Shown here: positions 10,323 through 63,887 of the stretch, piece after piece
Numbering within the stretch: position 1 is the stretch's first letter
How the letters are laid out: each line of letters begins with the position of its first letter
Source: an uncultured Chthonomonadaceae bacterium
GTDB taxonomy: Bacteria; Armatimonadota; Chthonomonadetes; Chthonomonadales; Chthonomonadaceae
DNA length: 64,000 nt
Assembly (NCBI GenBank): GCA_963835065.1
Contig: CAWIEK010000009.1
Coordinates: 64,001 to 128,000, forward strand
Direction: 5' to 3'
Made by a program: the position numbers and the translations under genes
Notes under the pieces: generated by a model
What the model was told of the DNA's origin: nothing
What the model saw: the letters and a program-made list of their open reading frames with translations, nothing else
Databases searched by the model: none

Positions 10323-11255
10323 TTACTCTAAACTTTTGGTAATAAGCGCGGGAGCGGACTTATCTATGGTTTCCGCCTTGACTGCTTCTTGTAACAACGG
10401 CTGTAAAAGTTGTTCGGTATGTTCTTCTTGCCCGTTTGCTGTTGAACGCAAGAGTTGATCTCCCGCCTCAGAGACGGGTTGCTCTGTACCAAAACCGGGA
10501 CGCAACAGGATTTCAGACGGCGTTGCTGAGAAGGAAGGCCGCAGCAAGACACCGGGGGCATGTTCTGAATGTAAACGTTCTTCAATGCAGAGGACCGTTT
10601 TGTTTGCCATGTCCGCCAGAATACGTGTGTTCTCGTGTTTGAATCGGATGGGCAGACGCATTACCCATCTTTTCAGCATTTTCGAGGTTTGATGCGTTCC
10701 CACTTGCGAAAGAGCAAACAGTAAGCCGCTCGTAAGTTTATCCGGTTCGCCTCCCTTGTTACCATGCTGCTTCCAGCAATGCGAATCAAGCAGCGAAAGC
10801 ATTTGGGTTTGGCGCTCTTGGTTCAGGAGGTCACTGTCCAGCCTATCTACCATTTGCATGAGACTGGCGATTTTGTCTACTTTCACGGAGTATGTTTCTG
10901 GAGAAGCGTGTTGTAACTCCAGCAGCAGAATAGGCAAAACGTCTTTCGTTTCCGCAGAAGAAACTTTAGCAGAGTACCTTTTGATTGCCCTGCTAAAGCA
11001 AGCCTGCAGACAAAGTTGACCGAGGATTGCGCTGCTAACAACAAAGATGGCTAGGTAAAGCAGGGCGTTTGAACCCGCACTACTTGAACGATGGGGAAAC
11101 GTAAATAAGTACAGCAATAGTATGATACATAAGCCAACAAAATTCGCCATAATAGCGTTATTTATACGGTTTATAGTGCAATAGTGTCGGTGGATGCGAC
11201 TTAAACTGATTTCCTCCAAACTATCGCAGGGCTTGTTCTGTTTCCAACGAAGCAC
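10323..11255 (-). CDS. Membrane protein with HEAT-like helices and LLRP-repeat tail
   Basis: GTG start after GAGGAG; two TM segments; tail VLLRPS..ILLRPG..QLLRST. Confidence 0.7.
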   Translation of the reverse strand: MLRWKQNKPCDSLEEISLSRIHRHYCTINRINNAIMANFVGLCIILLLYLFTFPHRSSSAGSNALLYLAIFVVSSAILGQLCLQACFSRAIKRYSAKVSSAETKDVLPILLLELQHASPETYSVKVDKIASLMQMVDRLDSDLLNQERQTQMLSLLDSHCWKQHGNKGGEPDKLTSGLLFALSQVGTHQTSKMLKRWVMRLPIRFKHENTRILADMANKTVLCIEERLHSEHAPGVLLRPSFSATPSEILLRPGFGTEQPVSEAGDQLLRSTANGQEEHTEQLLQPLLQEAVKAETIDKSAPALITKSLE

Positions 11256-11265
11256 GGGGTACTCC

Positions 11266-12795
11266 TCACACCGCATGTCCCGTCAGTGGCGGCTGCGCGG
11301 CGGGGCCGAAGCCGACGTTGCGGCGCACTGTTAATGTCACCTGATCGCCGTTGAATTCGCAGACGACGGTTTGTATGTAGGGTGTTTCGTAGAAGCACAG
11401 GGTTGCCGTATAGGTGTTGTCCTGCGTCCACGTTCCGCGCGCCGCCACTTTGTTGGAGACTGCGCCTTCCAGTCGGGCTGTGCCTTTTACCCACTGGCTG
11501 CTTCCGCATGTTACGCGCTGTTCGCCCTTTGCGTCCCGCGTTACCATCTGCCAACCGCTTGCATCGAACGTGAGCGTAAGCGATTCGATTTTCTGCGGGT
11601 TGTCAGCAAATCGGAATGTTTTGCCGGATACGCGGGCGGCAGTGGGCGTTGTCGGCTGTCCCTGTGGAACCGGAATGGCAAGCGCTTTTAGTTTCCGCGC
11701 CAGGTCTTTGTCCCCGTCGCTTTTGGGCAATGGCGTCGGTTGCATCGCGGGCAGCAAATGTTCCCATACGGCGTTGAGGATGGCCTGCATATCGCCCACG
11801 CCGCTGGTGATGGCAAGCACGGCGTCGTGATCCGGCAGGACCACGCAGAACTGGCCGAATGCGCCGTCCCCGCGATAAGCGTTGTGCCGACAGCGCCAGA
11901 ATTGATAGCCGTAGCCCTGACTCCAATCACTGGCCGCGCTCGGATCGCCGTTGGATACCTGCGCATGTGTCGCCTGCTCCACCCAATTTGCGGGCACAAC
12001 CTGCTTCCCGTTCCACTGCCCTTTTTGCAGATACAATTGGCCGAAGCGGGCAATGTCTTCGGTTTTCACGGCCAGGCCCCACCCGCCTGTATTGATGCCT
12101 CTGGGACACGTTTCCCACGTCGGATGTTCAATGCCCAGAGGGACGAACAGGCGCGATGTCAGGTATTCCAGAACGGGTTTCCCGGTCTGCTTCTGCACAA
12201 TGGCGGACAGCATGTACGTGGCCGCGCTGTTGTAAACGAATTTGGAACCCGGCTCGTGTTCGACGGGCAGGGCGAGAAAGCCGCGTACCCAATTACCGTC
12301 CGGCTGCGCGGTTGTCGGGCCGGTGGCATCCTTGTCGTGCCCCGTGTTCATGGTGAGCAGATGCTTTACCCGCATGGCGGCAAGGTTGTCGCTGATAGAC
12401 GCGGGCAGTTGGTCCGGGAAGAAATCCATTATCCTGTCTTCCACGCTCAAATGCCCCTCGCTCACAGCAAATCCAACCGCCGTACTCGTGAAACTCTTGC
12501 TCAGCGAGTACAGCATGTGCGGATAGGAGGGCGCATACGGCTGCCACCACGCTTCCGCCGCCACTTTGCCATGCCGCAGCAGCATCAGGCTGTGCAGCCC
12601 GCCCACTTTGGCGTTCACGGCATCCACAAAGGCGGCAAGGCCATCGGGCGCGATACCCGCCGCTTCCAACCGGACGCGGGGCAGTTTGTCGGCTGCGGCA
12701 GCGGCAGACGCGGGCGCATCGGCAGCCAGCTCTCCCACAGCACACGCGGCGGCGCCCAAAGCAACGCCCTGCAAAAACGTTCGACGGTCAGACAT
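11266..12795 (-). CDS. Tat-exported serine hydrolase (beta-lactamase / class C family)
   Basis: SDRRTFL twin-arginine signal; YSLSKS (SxxK); FVYNS; DIARFGQLYL. Confidence 0.92.
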   Translation of the reverse strand: MSDRRTFLQGVALGAAACAVGELAADAPASAAAAADKLPRVRLEAAGIAPDGLAAFVDAVNAKVGGLHSLMLLRHGKVAAEAWWQPYAPSYPHMLYSLSKSFTSTAVGFAVSEGHLSVEDRIMDFFPDQLPASISDNLAAMRVKHLLTMNTGHDKDATGPTTAQPDGNWVRGFLALPVEHEPGSKFVYNSAATYMLSAIVQKQTGKPVLEYLTSRLFVPLGIEHPTWETCPRGINTGGWGLAVKTEDIARFGQLYLQKGQWNGKQVVPANWVEQATHAQVSNGDPSAASDWSQGYGYQFWRCRHNAYRGDGAFGQFCVVLPDHDAVLAITSGVGDMQAILNAVWEHLLPAMQPTPLPKSDGDKDLARKLKALAIPVPQGQPTTPTAARVSGKTFRFADNPQKIESLTLTFDASGWQMVTRDAKGEQRVTCGSSQWVKGTARLEGAVSNKVAARGTWTQDNTYTATLCFYETPYIQTVVCEFNGDQVTLTVRRNVGFGPAAQPPLTGHAV

Positions 12796-20576: not shown

Positions 20577-21431
20577 TTATGGATTCTGCGTTTCGGATCC
20601 CGTATTAGAAGCGCGAAGCAACTGCTGCGGTTCCGTCGGCGCACTGGAAACGACCGGGCGCAGCAACGTATCGAGCGCGTCTGGTTGCGTTCCGGCGCGC
20701 AACAGAGTTTGTTCCACGCGGGCATGTTCGGCGCGCTGCTGTACATACGGCAAGCACTCCTGCGCGGCAAAACGCACTTGCGGATTGCGGGCTGTACGCG
20801 CCAACTTCTCCACATGCGGAACCGCTTTCTCATCCCCAATTTGTTCCAGCGCCTTCAAAATGGCTATCTTCAAATCTGCGCCCCAAAATCGTCCGTAGTA
20901 TGGAAAATACTCGTCATTGCTCAGACAACGATACAGACATTTGCGCTGCTGGGACGTAAGCAGGATGGTATCCGTAGCCTGTAATCGCGGCAGCATTTGT
21001 ATCAACATTCCTTTGAAACGCGCGTTTCGCAGAAGTTGTGATGTGGCATAAACTTCAATGAGCGGGCCAATTGCCTGTGGAATATCCAGAACTGCGATGT
21101 TGCGGGCAACGCGACTCTTCCATTGCGAAAACAGATATAGCACCCCTATAAAGCCGCAGCTGAAGAAGATTGAGTAGTCTCTGACAAAGCCATGTCCGGG
21201 AAGAGTGCCGAACATTACAGCCGGAATGTAAAGCAAGCCATAAATAGTTACAAAGACCATTTCCAGTTTGCGTATACGATTCAGCCGTTTTATATCACCG
21301 GCAATTAAGGCTTGCAAGTCGGCTTGCGCCTGCTGCCGTTCCGCGTCGTTGGAACTGTTCAGGCGGCGGGCGAGCGCGACGGTATCCACATCCGTAGGAA
21401 ATGTCGGCATAAAGCGCGTTTTCTCCGGCAT
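20577..21431 (-). CDS. Membrane protein with HEAT repeats and LLRP-repeat tail
   Basis: Two TM segments; AILKALEQIGDEKAVPHVEKLA..VRFAAQECLP; tail TLLRA..TLLRP..QLLRA. Confidence 0.8.
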   Translation of the reverse strand: MPEKTRFMPTFPTDVDTVALARRLNSSNDAERQQAQADLQALIAGDIKRLNRIRKLEMVFVTIYGLLYIPAVMFGTLPGHGFVRDYSIFFSCGFIGVLYLFSQWKSRVARNIAVLDIPQAIGPLIEVYATSQLLRNARFKGMLIQMLPRLQATDTILLTSQQRKCLYRCLSNDEYFPYYGRFWGADLKIAILKALEQIGDEKAVPHVEKLARTARNPQVRFAAQECLPYVQQRAEHARVEQTLLRAGTQPDALDTLLRPVVSSAPTEPQQLLRASNTGSETQNP

Positions 21432-23778: not shown

Positions 23779-24303
23779 TTACCCTTGCTTTTCAGGTGCT
23801 TTTGGCACTGAAGCCTCGGATGCTTCTCCGGCCTCGCTTGCGCGCAACAGGCTGTCGCCTGTTACCGGGGTTACGCCCTGCGCGGGACGGAGCAGAATGT
23901 CCGGGTTTGCAGGCGGCTCGGACGAGGGATGCAGCAGGGTTTGCGCCAAATAGCCCGGTTCGGTTCGCTCCCGCATCCGATGCAGGCATTGCGTCGCCGC
24001 TTCCCGCACTTCCGAGGAGGTTCGCAGGGCCGCGTTGGGCAGGCTCACAAACTCGACATGGCGCATAACCCACGCCAGATTTCGTATCCCTTCCCGCTCC
24101 TGAAGGGCGCGGAGGGTGGCAATCACTTCGTCCGGCGTGTAATCCCCGTGGCGGTTCACGCAGAGATTGGCGAGACTGCGCTGCGCCTGCTCCCGAACTC
24201 CAATGTCGGCGTCGCACAGGCCGTTGAGCAACCATTGAATATGCGCCTCCTGCGTTTGAGCCGGAGGCATTTTGCGCAGCCATTGTATGATTTGAGCCAG
24301 CAT
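23779..24303 (-). CDS. HEAT-repeat protein with LLRP-repeat tail
   Basis: ATG after GGAG; LCDADIGVREQAQRSL; VREAATQCL; tail TLLHP..ILLRP..SLLRA. Confidence 0.7.
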   Translation of the reverse strand: MLAQIIQWLRKMPPAQTQEAHIQWLLNGLCDADIGVREQAQRSLANLCVNRHGDYTPDEVIATLRALQEREGIRNLAWVMRHVEFVSLPNAALRTSSEVREAATQCLHRMRERTEPGYLAQTLLHPSSEPPANPDILLRPAQGVTPVTGDSLLRASEAGEASEASVPKAPEKQG

Positions 24304-34211: not shown

Positions 34212-35453
34212 CTATTTGCCTTCCTTTGCCTGCTTGCGGTAGTCGCGCATGGAGATCAGCTGCAGGTACGCGCCCACCACCATAATCAGGAAGGCCAGCA
34301 CGAAGGTGTTTTGCGCGCCCTCCCGCCGCAGCAGGGGAATGGCGAATTGGGGCGCAATCGTACCCCGAATGCCGAAGAAACTGGAATGGAGCGCCTGATA
34401 CTGCGCCGCCTTGCCCGGTTCCGCGAACATCAGCGTGGTATTCAGGTAGCCTAAATCAATGCCGGACATACACAGCCCGCTGGCAATCGCCGCCAGGTAC
34501 AGCGCCGACATCCCCCACGCCCCCGCATACAACAATGGTATCGCCAGATTGATGCAGATCGCCGCCAGCACCGTTGCCAATGACCCCTTGCGATCCAGAA
34601 ACGTGCCCCAAAACACATAGCCCACAATCGTCATAATGGACATGATGTTTTGCAGATTGGCGACCTGCGTATTGGAAACGTGAAACTTGTCCACCTGCTG
34701 AATCGGGATCAAGGTCGCGGAGATTAAATTTCCAAAGCCGGAAATAAACACCGAGGCCGTAAACCAGCGAAAGCCGGGATTGCGCTTCAGAATGTGAATG
34801 GTGTCGCGCGCAAACGCGCCCGCTGTCGCCGGATTTTCCTCCGGCAGCACGGCTTGCAGGCGAATCCGGCTGAACGTCCACGCGCTCAAAACGCCGAACG
34901 CGCCGCCGATGAAAAAGCCCGCCCGCCAGTTGATAACGTGGTCCAGCAGCCGCCCCATCACCAGCGCCGATACCAGTGTCGCCAGGCTCATGCCCATGCG
35001 AACGATGCTCATCAAGCGGCCCCGGTGCGCGTCGGGGTAAATCTCCTTCATAATAGCGGTGTACGCGGGCGTGGAAATGGAAAAAATGAGCGGCGTGATA
35101 CAAACGAGGGCGACATACTGCGCCTGCGTGTGCAGCAAGGGAGCGAACAAAAACAGACCGCGCGCCAGCAGCCATGTCCACGTCACAAACGGCATTTTGG
35201 AGCGGCCTTCCATCTGCCGCGCCCATAGGGTAGCGAAGATGTAGCCCAGCGCGGGAGCCGCCGTAATCCAGCCCATCTGCCCTCGCGTGGCGTGTATCTC
35301 GGCGCGCGCGATGCGCAGCACGAAGGTCCAGATGCAGCCCTGATAAATGCCCGCGCACAATCCCGTCACCATGTCCCATTGCCAGGCCGTTCGGGTCTGT
35401 GGGGACATTCTCAGTAAAAAGGCGCGCAAACGGGCGGCAAAATCGGAAATCAA
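34212..35453 (-). CDS. MFS transporter
   Basis: About 12 hydrophobic segments; EIYPDAHRGR; WGTFLDRKG; TTG start overlaps the upstream TGA (TTGA) after GGAG. Confidence 0.9.
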   Translation of the reverse strand: MISDFAARLRAFLLRMSPQTRTAWQWDMVTGLCAGIYQGCIWTFVLRIARAEIHATRGQMGWITAAPALGYIFATLWARQMEGRSKMPFVTWTWLLARGLFLFAPLLHTQAQYVALVCITPLIFSISTPAYTAIMKEIYPDAHRGRLMSIVRMGMSLATLVSALVMGRLLDHVINWRAGFFIGGAFGVLSAWTFSRIRLQAVLPEENPATAGAFARDTIHILKRNPGFRWFTASVFISGFGNLISATLIPIQQVDKFHVSNTQVANLQNIMSIMTIVGYVFWGTFLDRKGSLATVLAAICINLAIPLLYAGAWGMSALYLAAIASGLCMSGIDLGYLNTTLMFAEPGKAAQYQALHSSFFGIRGTIAPQFAIPLLRREGAQNTFVLAFLIMVVGAYLQLISMRDYRKQAKEGK

Positions 35454-38400
35454 GATGTTAGGTCTCCAGAATTGCGTTTTCTGGCCCACGCGACGCCCTG
35501 CGCGATAGCGGCGCGCATGGCGTCATCAAAGCCGTACCAGTCGCAAACAATTTTATCCGCTTCGCGTTGGAGGCCGCAAAACAGCGCCCACCGCTGCTGC
35601 GCTTCTTGTCCAAGCGCAGCATAGGCGGCAAGCCATCTTGAAGCGGCAATCGGTTCCGGCATCTGCCGCCCTTGCGCCTGCGCCCACGTTTGATCGCTCC
35701 GACTCCACTCGTCCAGAAACAGGCCCAGAACGCGGGCAAAATCAGCCGCGTAGGGCTGTTCTTCTCCCACGCCGGAAACGATTCGCTGCCGCGCATGAAG
35801 CGCAGAAACGCGCTGATTGGACGCGCCCTGATTTATCACTTCCCCTCGCGCTATCATATCGCCAAGCGTCAGTTTGGGCAGTGGCGTCGTGTTCAGGACG
35901 GCGGACGGCGGCAAAGTCACCGTTCCGGTTTCTGTTCCGGGCAGGATGGCATGAAGCCGCGTCACAAAATCGGCTTCAAGTTCGGCGCGAATATGCAACA
36001 TCCGGTCGGCCAAATCCGCCAGTTCGGCAACGGGAAACGTCGCCGGGTCAGGCACAGGAACGCGGTACAATTCTTCCTTTCCGATGTGGTTGTTGGTAGA
36101 AAAAAGATTTATCATGTAGGCGACAGGTTTGCTGACAATGAAAGCAAGAAGCGCCCTGCCGGTTTGAACCTCTGCTGTAGGCGCAAGCGAGATGCGCCAC
36201 AACTCATTCGTAAATGCAATCGGGTGAGTTGCGTCCCGTTCAAACCAGGTTGCAATCAAGGTGTCTCGCGTATTCAAACGGGCGACTTGACGCAAAACAA
36301 TGCCGAATTCACGGGCTGGTAGTTGTTGAACGGCTTCCAGATTCCTCGAGGCGGTAATGTTGGCAGTCGTAAATCCGGTGTTTGAACCAGGTGGAAGCGG
36401 CCTGGCCCAATCGGAAGGAATAGCGGGCAATGGCGCAAACAAATTCGCATTTTCGCCTTTGTAGATTGCCACATCTCCTTGCGCATAACTCCCATTCCTA
36501 CCTTTTACCCGTAATGGATTAAGATGCGTCGCATTCACGTCGCCCTGTTTGAAATCCGAAAACGTTTGAGCAAGCAGGGTTCCGAGCGTGAACGTCAATT
36601 CGTTGCTGACCATTCTTGCCTGCTGCCAGATTGCCGCATCGGTCGGGTTGTTGGAAACCAGCCACGCGCCGTTCCACGTTCCATTTTGCGGCACGGCGTC
36701 TACTACGGACGGGGCTGTAAGTAGGACATGGCCGGCCTGCGCGTCCGGGGTGTCATTGCCGCCGCCGACAACAATGGTCTGCGCGTCAATAGAATGTTCG
36801 ACGGCCACGATGCCGACAGCCTGATCCACGCCGGGAAACAGCATATCGCCGCGAAAAAAGCGGACGGCGGCGAAGGGCGCGAACGGCGGCGTTCGCAGCA
36901 GGTTCCGCGCCGCTTTCGCGCTTGGATCGCCGAAGATCGTCAGAGGCACAATAAACGCCATGCGCCCGAACTCGGCTAGATAGTAAAGCCCCAACTTCAG
37001 AAACAGCAGGTACAGGTTCAGGTCACCCGATAGTGCCGCCGCATAAAACGGCGCGCTGCGATATCGCTCTGCTGCCAGCGCCTCGCGCTTGCTCGTGACG
37101 TAGGGCGGGTTCGAAATCACGTATTGAAAGCCCGCCACAAAGCCGTTTGTTCGCGCCTTGATCGGGTAGGCTTCATCAGCCAGTCGCTCATTCAGCGTGT
37201 CGGGAATCGTGGAGGACTGCCCGGAAACATGCGGGTCGTCCAGCACGTCGCGCGGCAATTCCAGGCTATCCGTATTGACAATATTGAAACGGTCAATCGG
37301 GTAGTTCTGCCCCGCCTGCTGTAAAACCGCCAGATCGTTCAGCGTCTGAATCAGCAGGTTCATTTCGGCAAGGTAGCAGGCGAAGGGCAGCAGTTCCATG
37401 CCGTGAAACAGGCGGATCAGGTCTTCCACAAATCGGCGAGCCAGTTCCACGCGCAGGTTCGGGACGCTCCGTAAGCGCATTTTCATCCTCCGGCAGATGT
37501 TCGCGGCGGCAGATCGAGGCCACAAGGGCGCGGCGATAGCGGCGGGCCGCATGGACAAGAAAACTGCCGCTGCCGCAGGCCGGGTCGAGGATGGAACGCC
37601 CGATGACCGCCGCGCCCTCATAGCCGAGCAGGTCAAGCATGTACTCCACAACGCGAGGCCGGGTGAGAAAATGGCCCTTACGCTTTTGCGCCACCCGGTC
37701 AATATAGTTTTCGTAGGTGAAGCCGATCACGTCACTGGCAATATCGGCAAATGAGTAGCGGCACAGAAACGCAAGCGTTTCGAGCAGCAGAAAGTCGTCG
37801 GGAACAAACCAGTTGAAAACCGGCTGCTGAAAGAAGTGCAGATAGTAGTTGCCCGCTTTGCGCGTGAGCAAATTGCAATAAATATCGCCCACAATGCTGA
37901 CGCTTTCCAGTTCCCAAAACTGGCGGCGCGCGTAATCCAGCCACACTTGAAAGCCGCCGTTGCTTGCCATGCGCGGCTGCATCACCTGCTTGTCTTCCAG
38001 AACGCGAACAAGCAGCATACGCACAAAGAAAACATAAGCCACCTGTTCGGCAAACACTTCCGGCTTGATGTCCTCGGCGTCCGTCTGTCGGTTGCTCCAC
38101 ACCTGGTAGGCATGAGCGACAAGCAGGCGGCCACTGCTTTCAAATCGCAGCGAGTACAGAACGCCGCTGATGCGCAAAACATTTTCTTTCCAGATGTTGA
38201 ACTGCGCGTTAAGCGCGGGGGTTAAACTCCTGCCCTGCGACTTGACAAGCACCGGTTCAATTTGCTCCAACTCCTGTTTTGTGCTTTCACCAGGTTTGAG
38301 CGCATTCAAAGCCGCTGCAATGCTTTCCGGCTGATACGTGAAATTACTTAACAATTTTTTGGAAGCGTCCTGCCATTCCGACAGCAGGCGCGTTTGCGTG

Positions 38401-39131
38401 ACGTTCGCCTCCTCTTCTCCGGCAAGCGCGGCGCGAATACGGGTTAATGCGGCCAGGCGCAGGTGATCCAGTGACTCGCGGCTGCCCGCGATAAACTGCG
38501 CAAGCGCCCGGTCGGTGGTAAGGTGAATCGCGTTCGCTTCAAACGTGGCCGAGTCAACGGCAATGCTTTCCGCGAGGCTTGCAAATTGAAAGAAGCGCGT
38601 TCGGCTGAACAACAGTTGAAACAGAGCCAAATTGGTGGTTTGCGTTTCCCGAACCTCATCCGTAACGGTTTGCGCTCCAAACAGGGCTTCCACGTTCACA
38701 TTGACCAGTGTTTCGGCGTCGGACATGTCGTTGGCGGCAAAGCGCATAGCGACAATGCGGCGCATGTTGCACCAAACCGCGTAACCCGCTGTGCCGATGC
38801 AGTAGCGGCGCATCTGCTGAATATGTTTCGGCTCTAAATCAAGCGTACTGTTTTTGTCCTCCCATACAAACGCTGTGCCGACCGGCCCTCGTACAATGTA
38901 GTCCGGGCGGTTTTCCCGATTGCCCGCCTGCGTCAGGTTGTAATTCAGCCGGGCATCCTCGAAACCCAGCCATTCCAGCGCGTAGCGGGCGAACTGCTGA
39001 TCTACGGCATTGGCTTCATCGTTGCTGCGCTCACTTTCCGGCAGCGCCAGGTAAGCGCGATAATCGCACTGTCGCCCACCCACATTCAGGCTGATACGAT
39101 CAATAACGGCAGATTGAAAAGCAGCAAGCAT
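35450..39131 (-). CDS. Type IIG-like restriction-modification enzyme (nuclease + N6-adenine MTase + TRD), +1 frameshift near 37458
   Basis: RPDY..WEDK nuclease motif; GHFLTR; ILDPACGSGSFL (motif I); ISNPPY (motif IV); NLYLLFL; frames join at LTERP|LRVELA. Confidence 0.88.
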
Positions 39132-60068: not shown

Positions 60069-61184
60069 ATGCAGCAGCGCCTTGTCGCATCTGAAACCGC
60101 TTCGCATCCCTTGCCGTATACGCCTTTGCAGACGGAAGCCGGAACCGTGTCGTCGGGGGAACGCTTGCCGGTCACGCCCGAAGAAAAGCGCAAAATGCAG
60201 CAGCGCATCCGGCGCGTCCGGCGGCGCAGCCTGCTGACGCCGGACGTACTGGCGCAACTGGGGCAATCGCGCCTGCCAACCCAAACCCTCCACGCCCTGC
60301 TGACGATGCTGGAAGGGCCGTTTGAGGAGCATTGGGAGGAGCGCACTGCCGCAGTGTGGGCGCTCGGCCTGGCGCATCTGACGCCACGCCAACAGCAGAC
60401 CGTCAGTTACGCGCTGTGCCATGTTCTGCGCCGCAAAATGCTGACAGGGCGAGTTCACAAAGAGCGCTGGATAGACCCGCCCCTTGTGCTGGTCGCCATG
60501 CCCTGCCTGCTGTGCTGGTTGTTTGCCCTGCTCGCGCATACCTCGGAAGCGCAGGGCAGCCCGGTTGTTTTTCAGGCGGGCGCGCTATTCGGCAGCGTTT
60601 ACATTGCGCAGCGGTTCAACCAATCTCTCAAAACATCCGCGCTTATTCGTGACAATCGCTTGCGCGCAACGGCGGCAACGGCGTTAGGGCGCATCGGCAG
60701 TACGCATAGTATCGCCACTTTAGCCCGCGCCGCCCTGGACGGCAATACCAGCGTTCGCCATGCGGCCGTGCCGGCGCTGCAAGCCTGTCTTGCCAATCTG
60801 ACGCCCGCGTATCCCGGCGAACTGGAAGCCGACGTAATCCCCAACCTGTGCCGCCTGCTGGAACGGGCGCGCGAACAATTGACCCACAACAGCGCGCGGG
60901 CATCCGAACTGGCGCTGAGTATTCTGGACGCGCTGACGATCATTGGGGATGGCCGCGCCGCGTCTACGGTCAGCAATCTCATCAATACGGGGTGGACAGC
61001 CCCGGTCAACCGTGCCGCCAAAGACCTGCTTCCCCTGCTCCTGGCTCGTCAACAGCAGGAAACCGATCAGCGCGTGTTGTTGCGCGGCGCGGCCACGCCC
61101 AGTGATACGCCCCAAACCCTGCTGCGCCCCATCGAAACCGATGGCAGCGAAGATCAGCAGCACACACTATTGCGTCCCTTGTAA
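60069..61184 (+). CDS. Membrane protein with HEAT repeats and LLRP-repeat tail
   Basis: WEERTAAVWALG; two TM segments; ILDALTIIGDGRA; tail VLLRG..TLLRP..TLLRP. Confidence 0.82.
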   Translation: MQQRLVASETASHPLPYTPLQTEAGTVSSGERLPVTPEEKRKMQQRIRRVRRRSLLTPDVLAQLGQSRLPTQTLHALLTMLEGPFEEHWEERTAAVWALGLAHLTPRQQQTVSYALCHVLRRKMLTGRVHKERWIDPPLVLVAMPCLLCWLFALLAHTSEAQGSPVVFQAGALFGSVYIAQRFNQSLKTSALIRDNRLRATAATALGRIGSTHSIATLARAALDGNTSVRHAAVPALQACLANLTPAYPGELEADVIPNLCRLLERAREQLTHNSARASELALSILDALTIIGDGRAASTVSNLINTGWTAPVNRAAKDLLPLLLARQQQETDQRVLLRGAATPSDTPQTLLRPIETDGSEDQQHTLLRPL

Positions 61185-61185
61185 T

Positions 61186-61352
61186 TTCACCAACCGGACG
61201 CTTGGTTCCGGGTATTGAAAATACCCGGCAGGAAAGTACAAGCGTCCTGCGGACGCGGGAATCTTTATACAGAGTTGCGTCCGCAGGACGCTTGGCGGAA
61301 CGCCACCGAGACGGGTATTTTCAATGCCCGGAACCAAGCGTCCGGTAGTGAA
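61186..61352. repeat. Palindromic REP/MITE-like element
   Basis: Terminal inverted repeats ccggacgcttggttccgggtattgaaaatacccg / cgggtattttcaatgcccggaaccaagcgtccgg; related to 12823-12950. Confidence 0.85.
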
Positions 61353-61364
61353 TACCAACCCAAC

Positions 61365-62582
61365 ATGCAGCACCAGCATATACAAGAAGAAGCGCGCGAG
61401 TTCAGCCTGCCTCCTGATACAGGGGGGCTGCGTACTATGCCGCCGGATGTGTCGGCAGATGCTGCAGCTTGCCTGAACATGGAAACGGAAACACAGGCTA
61501 AAAATGATCCTTTGATTTCAGAAGTATTACCAATCGAAACACGCCAACAAACGCCGTTTATTCAGAAGTTGCGGCGTAAATTGTTCCGGCGCTCCTTTCC
61601 GTCCATGCCGCAAGCGTACTCGGAAAATCCCAGCCCGCTTGACGCGCAAAAGTTCAGTGCGGCATTGACCGCATTATGTAACCCCGCGCCCAGCGCCTGG
61701 CGCGAACGCATGTATTGCGCCTGGCTGCTTGGTCATGCGCCCCTGACACCCGCACAGCAACTTGAAGCAACCCGCGCTTTAGGCAGCGAGGTACAATTCC
61801 GCTATGTATCCCGTTACGACCGGTTTCGTGCCCACTTACGAAGAGTAGAGTATCAAACGCTGCCATTGGCTGTCATCAGCGCTCTATGGATTACTCTGCC
61901 AATTATCCGGCACGGTACTCATCATCATACTACGCTTGATCTATCTACGTCTGTATTCATGGTTGCCGGTATGTTTTTGGCGCTGTATGTCTCTCTTTTT
62001 CCAAGTGTCTTTCTGCTTTCCGCGCTTCTAAACATGCGCCGCGTCAACAGTGTGCGCGTTGCCGCGATTCTGGCTTTGGCGCGTTTGCGCGCGCCGGAAG
62101 CTATCGGGCCACTTTCCCGCGCCGCTCTGGATGTCAGTCATGGCATACGAGTCGTGGCGGAGGAGAGCCTCCGCCAATGCCTGCCGCAGATTACGCCTGA
62201 CCACTATGGGCGACTGGATGCGGATACGGTTCCCGCCCTGTGCAAACTGCTGGATGTTAAAAAAGAGCGGTTGTTTGCCGGACACCTGCATACCGAGCAA
62301 CTGGTGCTGGATGTATTAGACGCATTGGGCAAAATCGGCGATGGCAGCGCTGTGCGACATGTGGAAAGCGTAGCCGAGGATGGCTGGACGTCGTCTGCGC
62401 GCGACGCCGCCCGCCAAATCCTGCCCCTTCTGCGCCAGCGCCAACAGCAGGAAAACGAACTCCGCCTCCTCCTGCGCGGCTCCACGCCACCCCCGACTTC
62501 CCCCGACCAGCTTCTGCGCCCCACCCTGCCCACTCCCCACACTGCGCCTGAACTACTATTAAGATCAGGGAGTAGGGAGTAG
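61365..62582 (+). CDS. Membrane protein with HEAT repeats and LLRP-repeat tail (tandem paralogue)
   Basis: WRERMYCAWLLG; two TM segments; VLDALGKIGDGSA; tail LLLRG..QLLRP..LLLRS; start uncertain (61365, 61437 or 61479). Confidence 0.8.
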   Translation: MQHQHIQEEAREFSLPPDTGGLRTMPPDVSADAAACLNMETETQAKNDPLISEVLPIETRQQTPFIQKLRRKLFRRSFPSMPQAYSENPSPLDAQKFSAALTALCNPAPSAWRERMYCAWLLGHAPLTPAQQLEATRALGSEVQFRYVSRYDRFRAHLRRVEYQTLPLAVISALWITLPIIRHGTHHHTTLDLSTSVFMVAGMFLALYVSLFPSVFLLSALLNMRRVNSVRVAAILALARLRAPEAIGPLSRAALDVSHGIRVVAEESLRQCLPQITPDHYGRLDADTVPALCKLLDVKKERLFAGHLHTEQLVLDVLDALGKIGDGSAVRHVESVAEDGWTSSARDAARQILPLLRQRQQQENELRLLLRGSTPPPTSPDQLLRPTLPTPHTAPELLLRSGSRE

Positions 62583-62725: not shown

Positions 62726-63157
62726 ATGGACGAGGAGCGGGAACTGCTCAAAGGAAATACGCCCACGCTGGTACTGGCCGTTCTTAAGGACGCGCCCCGA
62801 CACGGCTACGGCATTGCCCGCGAAATCGAGCGGCGCAGCGACAACGCCTTGAAGTTCAAGGAAGGAACGCTTTACCCCGCGCTGCACGCTCTGGAACGCG
62901 AAGGGCTGATTGTCGGCGCGTGGGAAAAAGAACCCGGCGGGCGCGAACGCAAAGTGTACCGCATCACGCCGCAGGGATTGGCCGCCTTAGCGCGGCGCGC
63001 GCAAACGTGGAACGCCTTCGCCAACGCCGTGCAAAGCGTGATTGCGGGCAGTCCACAGGGAGACCAACATGCAGGAACACCATCAGCAGCAGGAACCGGA
63101 ACAACAAACGTATTCCCCATCCCCGGTCTCCGGCCCCATCCTGAACCCACCGGCTGA
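62726..63157 (+). CDS. PadR family transcriptional regulator
   Basis: LLKGN..LVLAVL..HGYGI..EGTLYPALHALE..RKVYRITPQG. Confidence 0.95.
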   Translation: MDEERELLKGNTPTLVLAVLKDAPRHGYGIAREIERRSDNALKFKEGTLYPALHALEREGLIVGAWEKEPGGRERKVYRITPQGLAALARRAQTWNAFANAVQSVIAGSPQGDQHAGTPSAAGTGTTNVFPIPGLRPHPEPTG

Positions 63158-63887
63158 TACCGGCGCTACAGACGCGCTGCTGGACGCTTATCTGGATTCG
63201 ATCTGCGCCAATCTGCCGCCCGAAGTGGATTCGGATGCCGCGCAGGATATGCGCCGTGAAATGCGCGGGCATTTGCAGGCGGCAGTGGTTGCCGGGCAGG
63301 AATTGGGCTACGCGCCGGAACAGTCTGTAGAACATGCGTTCGCCCAATTCGGCAAGCCGCAGGTTGTGGCGCGGCAATGGCAGGAAGAGTGGGAAACAAC
63401 GCTTACGGCAACAAAGGCTGTTCCCTTCCTGCCCTCGCTGAAGCTGGCGTCGAAAATGTGGGCGGTTTCGGGAGGCATGGCAGTTGCCGCCGGCGCGATT
63501 CTGATGATGCTGATTTTAACACAGCCTGAGTCACCCTTGCGTCTTCCCCTGATGTTTTCGATCTTTTTCGGACCACCGCTCGTGTCGGGAACGATCATCG
63601 GAATGCGAGCGCGCCGCCATCCGGTTCTTGCCACGCTGGCGGGCTATGCCCTGCTGCTTCCATTCCTTATTGTGGGGTTTATCGGCGTCAACGCCTGCCA
63701 AGCCCCTTATGTCAGTTGGCTGACAGGCAAAACCTTCACGTATCCATTCGGCTTGTCCGTTGAGGCAGGTATTCGCAGCGCGCTGTCCTTCATGCCGCTG
63801 TGGATTATTCTCAGCGCTTTCAGTTCGGGCATGGTGACACTGGCCCGCCGCTACAAAACGCGCGCCCGTCGGCAAATCGCGCGCTGA
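63069..63887 (+). CDS. PadR-associated membrane protein (permease-prefix/HAAS-like N-terminus)
   Basis: LDAYLDSI..EMRGHL..AFAQFGKPQVVA followed by about four TM segments; AGGGAG RBS. Confidence 0.82.
   Translation: MQEHHQQQEPEQQTYSPSPVSGPILNPPADTGATDALLDAYLDSICANLPPEVDSDAAQDMRREMRGHLQAAVVAGQELGYAPEQSVEHAFAQFGKPQVVARQWQEEWETTLTATKAVPFLPSLKLASKMWAVSGGMAVAAGAILMMLILTQPESPLRLPLMFSIFFGPPLVSGTIIGMRARRHPVLATLAGYALLLPFLIVGFIGVNACQAPYVSWLTGKTFTYPFGLSVEAGIRSALSFMPLWIILSAFSSGMVTLARRYKTRARRQIAR

Follow-up and report, generated by a model that had tools for sequence, protein, structure and literature searches.

A short tail near the C-terminus, built of tandem xLLR[AP] units joined by flexible spacers rich in Pro, Ser, Thr and Glu, is carried by many otherwise unrelated proteins of the Chthonomonadales. 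Judging from the sequences, the tail is a portable module and not part of one protein family; there is about an even chance that its LLR unit is a docking motif, by which many clients would be docked to a common cytoplasmic receptor, specific to this order and endowed with several binding sites. The tail is real and broader than a single HEAT family; its function, multivalent linear-motif docking, is what we infer.

The window, a stretch of 64,000 nucleotides, is part of contig C9 of an 8.0 Mb genome, indicated as G000 in the following. Five of its reading frames were described in an earlier note as ending with three LL[RH]x motifs: translation gives the three terminal motifs in all of them, including the LLHP variant in 23779-24303. 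Gene 10323 (10323..11276, minus strand) encodes a membrane protein with two hydrophobic segments and a degenerate helical-repeat body, 317 residues long if started at ATG 11276, which may be the start, or 310 if started at GTG 11255; its triple tail (10446..10547, minus strand) is followed by a degenerate fourth motif, LLQP. Gene 20577 (20577..21431, minus strand, 284 residues) is a typical member of family A, where a HEAT-like solenoid with an inserted helical hairpin precedes the tail (20613..20705, minus strand). Gene 23779 (23779..24303, minus strand, 174 residues) encodes a soluble HEAT-like member, devoid of hydrophobic segments, whose triple tail (23842..23937, minus strand) has LLHP as its first motif. 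Two membrane HEAT-like members are found in tandem on the plus strand: gene 60069 (60069..61184, 371 residues, tail at 61077..61175) and gene 61365 (61365..62582, 405 residues, tail at 62469..62564, as counted from translation).

The HEAT-like unit ALxxIGDxxA..AAxxxLPxL, also pointed out in that note, is literally present in 20577, 60069 and 61365, and degenerate in 10323 and 23779. The two-segment membrane hairpin, attributed to four of the five proteins, holds in part: in a hydropathy scan 10323 and 61365 have two segments each, 20577 and 60069 have a single one above threshold, and 23779 has none. In the AlphaFold model of 20577 a long helical hairpin is visible. Pfam HEAT matches are weak and present in four of the five proteins, 10323 having none: the HEAT_2 cut-off is exceeded by 60069 and the HEAT cut-off by 23779, while 20577 and 61365 remain below. 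Directly downstream of the tandem members (60069-62582), a PadR regulator and a HAAS-domain gene form a pair (window positions 62726-63887). Elsewhere in the window, at 35450-39131, an N6-methyltransferase/Eco57I-like gene is read as two overlapping frames, 35450-37702 and 37293-39131, which suggests a frameshift or an assembly error.

A genome-wide expansion, anticipated from the five copies in the window, is indeed found: an iterated tail profile retrieves 67 tail proteins in G000, each with its tail at most 53 residues from the stop, and 1-53 residues following it. The triple pattern, searched as a regular expression, gives 43 matches in a set of 69,977 reading frames, and in 42 cases the stop is no more than 54 residues away; the match at C67:31527 is spurious, lying in a Leu-rich frame. 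When the 7,027 called genes are considered, 41 contain the pattern, all within the last 100 residues, whereas shuffling whole proteins 20 times gives 0-1, and shuffling just these 100 terminal residues, again 20 times, gives none: its C-terminal position goes beyond what composition predicts. Of the matches to a DNA profile of the tail, 65 fall in member genes and 6 in broken ones, and one is spurious. Broken members, featuring a frameshift or a stop, are located at C11:134723-135607, C28:14494, C44:180896, C44:357243, C44:552115, C67:16093 and C67:24571, and are either pseudogenes or indel errors of the assembly. Some regions of the assembly are duplicated.

The bodies carrying the tail are diverse. 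The attribution of the tail to one family of HEAT-like proteins is too narrow: HEAT-like members are there, but the tail is also found on unrelated bodies and, in single or double form, on small soluble proteins. In family A, the membrane hairpin is inserted in a HEAT-like solenoid; the family profile matches the alphaReps with E values down to 4e-22, and the body appears helical-repeat-like by fold search, where no match is found at E <= 0.001. Family B, with 16 members in G000, is composed of hairpin proteins of 140-190 residues, lacking HEAT. The profiles of the two families align over the tail only (hhalign 96.8%). The family-A core profile is unmatched by 35 of the 67 G000 members, which include family B, fragments, divergent HEAT and soluble HEAT proteins, as well as a hairpin with a small C-terminal domain and a DUF3592-like protein. 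A bPH-like region, recognized by eye, is another body.

At C3:149529-154705 of G000, four soluble HEAT proteins, all with the tail, are found in tandem; proteins resembling them are also present in G014, G018, G020 and G023. A second shared C-terminal ending, containing ALLxLSEWLDGKVSEQEKRELLQLPDD, is found in G000 at C45:121819-122358, C68:107226-107411, C68:110500-110667 and C42:37943-38107; the genes bearing it have family-B LLR genes and a family of ankyrin-repeat membrane proteins for neighbours, an arrangement reminiscent of a mobile cassette.

The tail is not always terminal. It is internal in P0121, P0122, P0124 and P0138, possibly through the fusion of tandem genes, and is followed by an extra HEAT unit in L063 and L086, indicating that a free C-terminus is probably not needed. 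A signal requiring such a terminus is therefore unlikely. ssrA-like degrons, PDZ ligands and membrane-anchored sorting tails do not fit, the motif being located neither at the extreme C-terminus nor before a membrane segment.

In 102 homologues, gathered by a search with the whole protein, conservation is 90% or more at every one of the nine LLR positions, as compared to a mean column identity of 20%. Spacers measure 11-12 residues in 262, and 12 residues in 264, of the 319 sequences considered, counts which are biased because about half of the 319 sequences came through the tail profile. In the AlphaFold model of 20577, with a mean pLDDT of 85, motif 1 is the end of the last long helix (217-247), and motifs 2 and 3 are unstructured (pLDDT ~53). 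The number of motifs per protein ranges from one to four. Few conserved residues, a predicted-disordered region and non-homologous carriers are the features of a short linear motif. All synonymous Leu and Arg codons are in use across the tail copies and vary freely, so that the peptide, rather than a repeated DNA element, is what selection maintains. Conservation, flexibility and codon use thus agree with the description of the tail as a short linear motif, conserved at the protein level on variable proteins.

Shorter forms of the tail are found on small proteins. A scan for lone motifs detects, at C60:17802-18128 of G000, a 108-residue Hfq-like protein with one motif. Its AlphaFold model is a Sm fold of five strands; the top Foldseek matches are all Hfq (E 1e-4, rmsd 1.0-1.4 A over ~57 residues, several Hfq chains) and its Atlas neighbours are Hfq/Hfq_1. 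Pfam Hfq is not matched, and the tail has a pLDDT of ~57. In 26 of 34 Hfq-like rows one xLLR[PA] is located ~10 residues past the last strand; the other 8 comprise six paralogues and one companion, all untagged, together with a fragment due to a frameshift. In a tree built on the core only, 24 tagged rows are separated from 6 untagged ones by a 100/99 branch. None of 13 rows from other orders (12 of 13 loci) has a LLR tail, and most of these homologues stop at or just past the last strand. As far as sequence comparison goes, the motif is shown to have been gained on one Hfq-like clade, in this order only. The untagged paralogues (C26:7127-7426 and C62:5237-5536 in G000; also L148 and L150-L152) form a clade with a conserved tail, (I/V)(Y/F)EPxAQxLP, in place of LLR. 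In 12 loci, the gene next after the tagged Hfq-like one encodes a receiver-like protein without Pfam match (C60:18125-18805 in G000).

A second small family, recognized by a PGGW signature, is present in 15 of 46 genomes. Out of 28 rows, 20 (19 distinct) contain one or two motifs, 6 are untagged and 2 incomplete. Near-twins, one tagged and one untagged, are both present in G001 (L201, L207). The tree, built without duplicate rows, incomplete rows and L207, is compatible with one as well as with several gains of the motif. The PGGW protein has no match in PDB or PHROG; a weak lead to the Lockin phage sponge is given, at low recognition, by one Atlas cluster (score 0.84, 16% Lockin members).

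A lone LLR[PA] near the C-terminus is also seen in G000 in a YsnF/DUF2382 protein (C15:68086-69222), a small membrane protein (C10:32859-33227) and a TPR-CHAT protein (C63:160510-163917), which are possibly further clients or chance occurrences, as well as at the end of IspE. In the scan of G000 proteins outside the members, lone motifs are not enriched in the last 50 residues over elsewhere.

The tail is present in 42 of 46 Chthonomonadales genomes, with 2-70 copies each. In a search of 251 genomes of the phylum, with at most 29 candidates scored per genome, the tail profile is matched in all 14 genomes of the window's family, in 8 out of 11 of the second family of the order and not in the only genome of the third. 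Outside the order, one of 224 genomes (G219) gives a match, which was dropped as partial and unconvincing. At least 2,412 clusters match the profile among 1.84 billion representatives, to which taxonomy is not attached; of the best 150, which were inspected, one is spurious (P0134, a tandem repeat). No family-A relative is found in viruses. A pattern scan of virus DNA, a weak test since the pattern began with one codon choice only, detects 19 stretches, 16 with a motif-matching frame: all are simple repeats and none is found by the tail profile.

The four negative genomes, G019, G024, G025 and G257, are 92-99% complete. They also lack the HEAT family, although the HEAT and tail profiles are not independent: HEAT proteins carry most of the tails, and the tail is part of the HEAT alignment. 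The tagged Hfq-like gene is found in none of the four; at the thioredoxin locus of G025 the untagged companion gene is kept, and at this locus the tagged gene is close by in tail-positive relatives. The joint loss of tails, HEAT family and tagged Hfq-like gene, in four related genomes of three genera and in perhaps two or three events, suggests that a shared reader was lost, after which the tags were useless.

In the proposed mechanism, each xLLR[PA] unit would form a one-turn helix, with a Pro/acidic N-cap, a Leu-Leu face, the Arg and a Pro/Ala stop, and would bind weakly to a pocket. Single-chain membrane and HEAT clients would acquire avidity from three units, ~14-15 residues apart; the Hfq-fold client from one unit per subunit of a ring, which is predicted from the fold alone. 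A valency rule, linking the number of motifs to the oligomeric state, may accordingly be put forward as a hypothesis of the model. The receptor would bring its clients together on the cytoplasmic side of the cell membrane, in the way of the GpsB hexamer and its Arg motif, and the purpose might be localisation, assembly or turnover. The membrane hairpins are flanked by basic residues, which, by the positive-inside rule for membrane proteins, would make the tails cytoplasmic. The motif comes and goes among genomes together on all the carriers compared. The distinct flanks of the three motifs count against docking, since they would also fit a small cooperative fold. A more elaborate version, in which a dedicated, eukaryote-style sorting or scaffolding machinery has an undescribed oligomeric hub reading the LLR tags, with tag number tuned to client oligomery and up to ~70 fast-evolving clients per cell (hairpin membrane proteins, HEAT proteins and small rings) in one membrane-associated structure, is tentative and on the doubtful side.

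Among the reader candidates tested by distribution, none tracks the tail, which weighs against the docking reading. Tail-negative genomes, too, contain PspA, the proteasome ATPase, a Ycf46-type ATPase, FlhA and SPFH, and bactofilin and BMC shells are not found in tail-positive ones (five genomes compared for each of these). TPR-AAA, compared in five genomes, is present in G025 and not in G024, both tail-negative. In the set of 46 genomes, DivIVA is not found in G000, yet it is found in all four tail-negative genomes, and a pseudo-receiver neighbour, present in 29, does not track the tail. Ten of the 42 tail-positive genomes have no Hfq-like protein, and its gene is cleanly deleted in the G008, G009, G265 and G272 loci, so that it is to be seen as a client and not as a universal reader. 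In gene neighbourhoods, covering 6 kb around the 67 G000 members and 44 loci of relatives, only generic abundant families recur. The Ycf46-type AAA ATPase of G000 (C3:187337-190672) is 1,111 residues long, while its frames in five relatives are of ~515-580 residues: it looks like the gene is interrupted by an intein.

The reader may also be sought within the tailed proteins. The family-A HEAT core would then bind the LLR units of its neighbours, forming a membrane lattice, and HEAT-less proteins would be cargo recruited through their tails. The core is the sole folded domain known to us with the distribution of the tail (42 of 46 genomes, same negatives), a co-distribution which is partly circular. 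It features unusually conserved polar residues (D154 95%, R163 88%, E196 93%, Q197 100%, D200 93%) and, in low-copy genomes, nearly all triple tails are on HEAT proteins. Such a role is nevertheless unlikely, although it survives better than the other alternatives: the AlphaFold monomer, based on a 102-row alignment, leaves motifs 2 and 3 undocked on the core, and a simple covariation scan finds no core-tail pair above background. The predicted complex of the core (residues 100-237 of family A) with a family-B tail scores 0.01, compared to a mark of 0.32, with controls unfolded, and weighs neither for nor against binding.

The tail might, alternatively, be a degron or a tether for a universal AAA+ machine, for instance ClpX/FtsH, or the proteasome ATPase, where it would mimic UBact. 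The proteasome ATPase is present, UBact-proteasome operons are found in G000, G013, G029 and G025, and UBact proteins contain look-alikes of the motif, TSDLLKRM and TSDELLRRM. AAA+ hexamers such as the proteasome ATPase feature three dimeric N-domains, with which the three motifs could pair. The look-alike is, however, a generic helix start, not followed by Pro or Ala; the ATPase is retained in the tail-negative G024 and G025, and UBact in G025, while the joint loss of every client would be unexpected with a universal reader. The G000 member adjacent to the proteasome genes is not syntenic in other genomes. Altogether, this possibility is regarded as quite unlikely. The operon itself is located in G000 at C49:30215-41576, and contains the ATPase, two ligase/deamidase-like genes, a UBact-like gene and the beta and alpha subunits; 1.8 kb upstream, the opposite strand encodes a HEAT protein whose LLR tail is degenerate, an arrangement not seen in relatives.

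Flanking preferences, which differ among motifs 1, 2 and 3, may be seen, along with the tight spacing, as an indication that the motifs bind each other, forming a pseudo-symmetric knot or clustering as stickers, without a separate receptor; a ring with one motif per subunit could form the same knot in trans. The tail, on the other hand, has no confident predicted fold, a simple scan finds no covariation within it, and forms with one and two motifs are stable across two families: self-association of this kind is improbable.

Very improbable is the recognition of the motif by a modifying enzyme or a protease particular to the lineage, acting by arginine modification, R-x-S/T phosphorylation or cleavage after Arg. 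Such a site would agree with the near-invariant Arg and with the Ser found at +2 after motif 1 in 74% of the cases, but in motif 2 Pro directly follows the Arg in 52%, with Ser/Thr rare at +2, some copies have His instead of Arg, and catalysis needs no fixed spacing. Hardly any credence is left for the idea of a repeat at the DNA level, or of a selectively neutral remnant of gene duplications, to which the six frameshifted or interrupted copies might point, as it is largely refuted by the free synonymous codon variation, by the 65 DNA-profile matches falling in member genes, and by the persistence of the motif over two families despite diverging spacers. The docking of LLR units on a shared receptor is retained as the preferred reading.

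The tail falls outside characterized domains: there is no credible match in NCBIfam, Pfam or PDB. NCBIfam matches none of 40 tails; in Pfam the same number gives only two single weak matches, at chance level (E 0.07 and 0.15); the best PDB match (E 0.039) covers 12 residues of a designed protein. The literature search, whose coverage excludes most subscription journals, returned no description of the motif. The module is thus new in the sense of being undescribed in the sources searched, while its bodies are known folds (HEAT, Sm).

Short linear motifs are a main organizing code in eukaryotes; to our knowledge, few are described in bacteria, each with a handful of clients. For the LLR motif, tail-bearing genomes across an order count 2-70 clients with tandem motifs, in addition to single-motif versions on unrelated small proteins, and there is a fair chance that the tail marks a new bacterial scaffolding system. 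The clean natural controls of gain and loss across the order make the reader directly findable, and the tail would give a first way into the function of many 'hypothetical' proteins, in a phylum that has hardly been studied.

Some known systems resemble the tail in part. SHOCT is a short C-terminal module found on many unrelated bacterial membrane proteins: both are appended modules, but SHOCT folds into a helical hairpin and has a dedicated Pfam model, while the tail is predicted to be disordered and has no significant Pfam/NCBIfam match. Pup/UBact tags are conjugated post-translationally and bind through a long helix; like the tail, they are disordered segments with a DLL(K/R)-like helix start, but they persist in a genome from which LLR tails are absent. 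The body of family A matches by profile the PBS-lyase-type HEAT repeats (HEAT_2/HEAT_PBS; alphaRep scaffolds), from which it differs by the inserted membrane hairpin and by family-specific conserved residues; the tail lies outside the HEAT repeat and is also found without it. A precedent for protein contacts of Hfq is the cyanobacterial one, which binds the C-terminus of PilB1 (PMC4390875, part of the text). The single-motif client described here shares the Hfq fold, but is known as a carrier of the motif and not as its reader.

The closest likeness is with GpsB of Firmicutes, a hexamer reading SRxxR(R/K) in cytoplasmic segments of unrelated membrane proteins (10.1101/427823, part of the text): in both cases a short, Arg-centred motif is found on unrelated membrane proteins, with one oligomeric adaptor, postulated for the tail. 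The tail differs in being C-terminal, in its xLLR[AP] sequence, in its three repeats in fixed register and in the number of proteins involved, up to ~70. It is not a member of the GpsB/DivIVA system, the SRxxR(R/K)-type membrane-adjacent motif being missing and a DivIVA-family adaptor not being found in G000. By analogy, the tail would most likely work in the way of GpsB and its SRxxR(R/K) motif.
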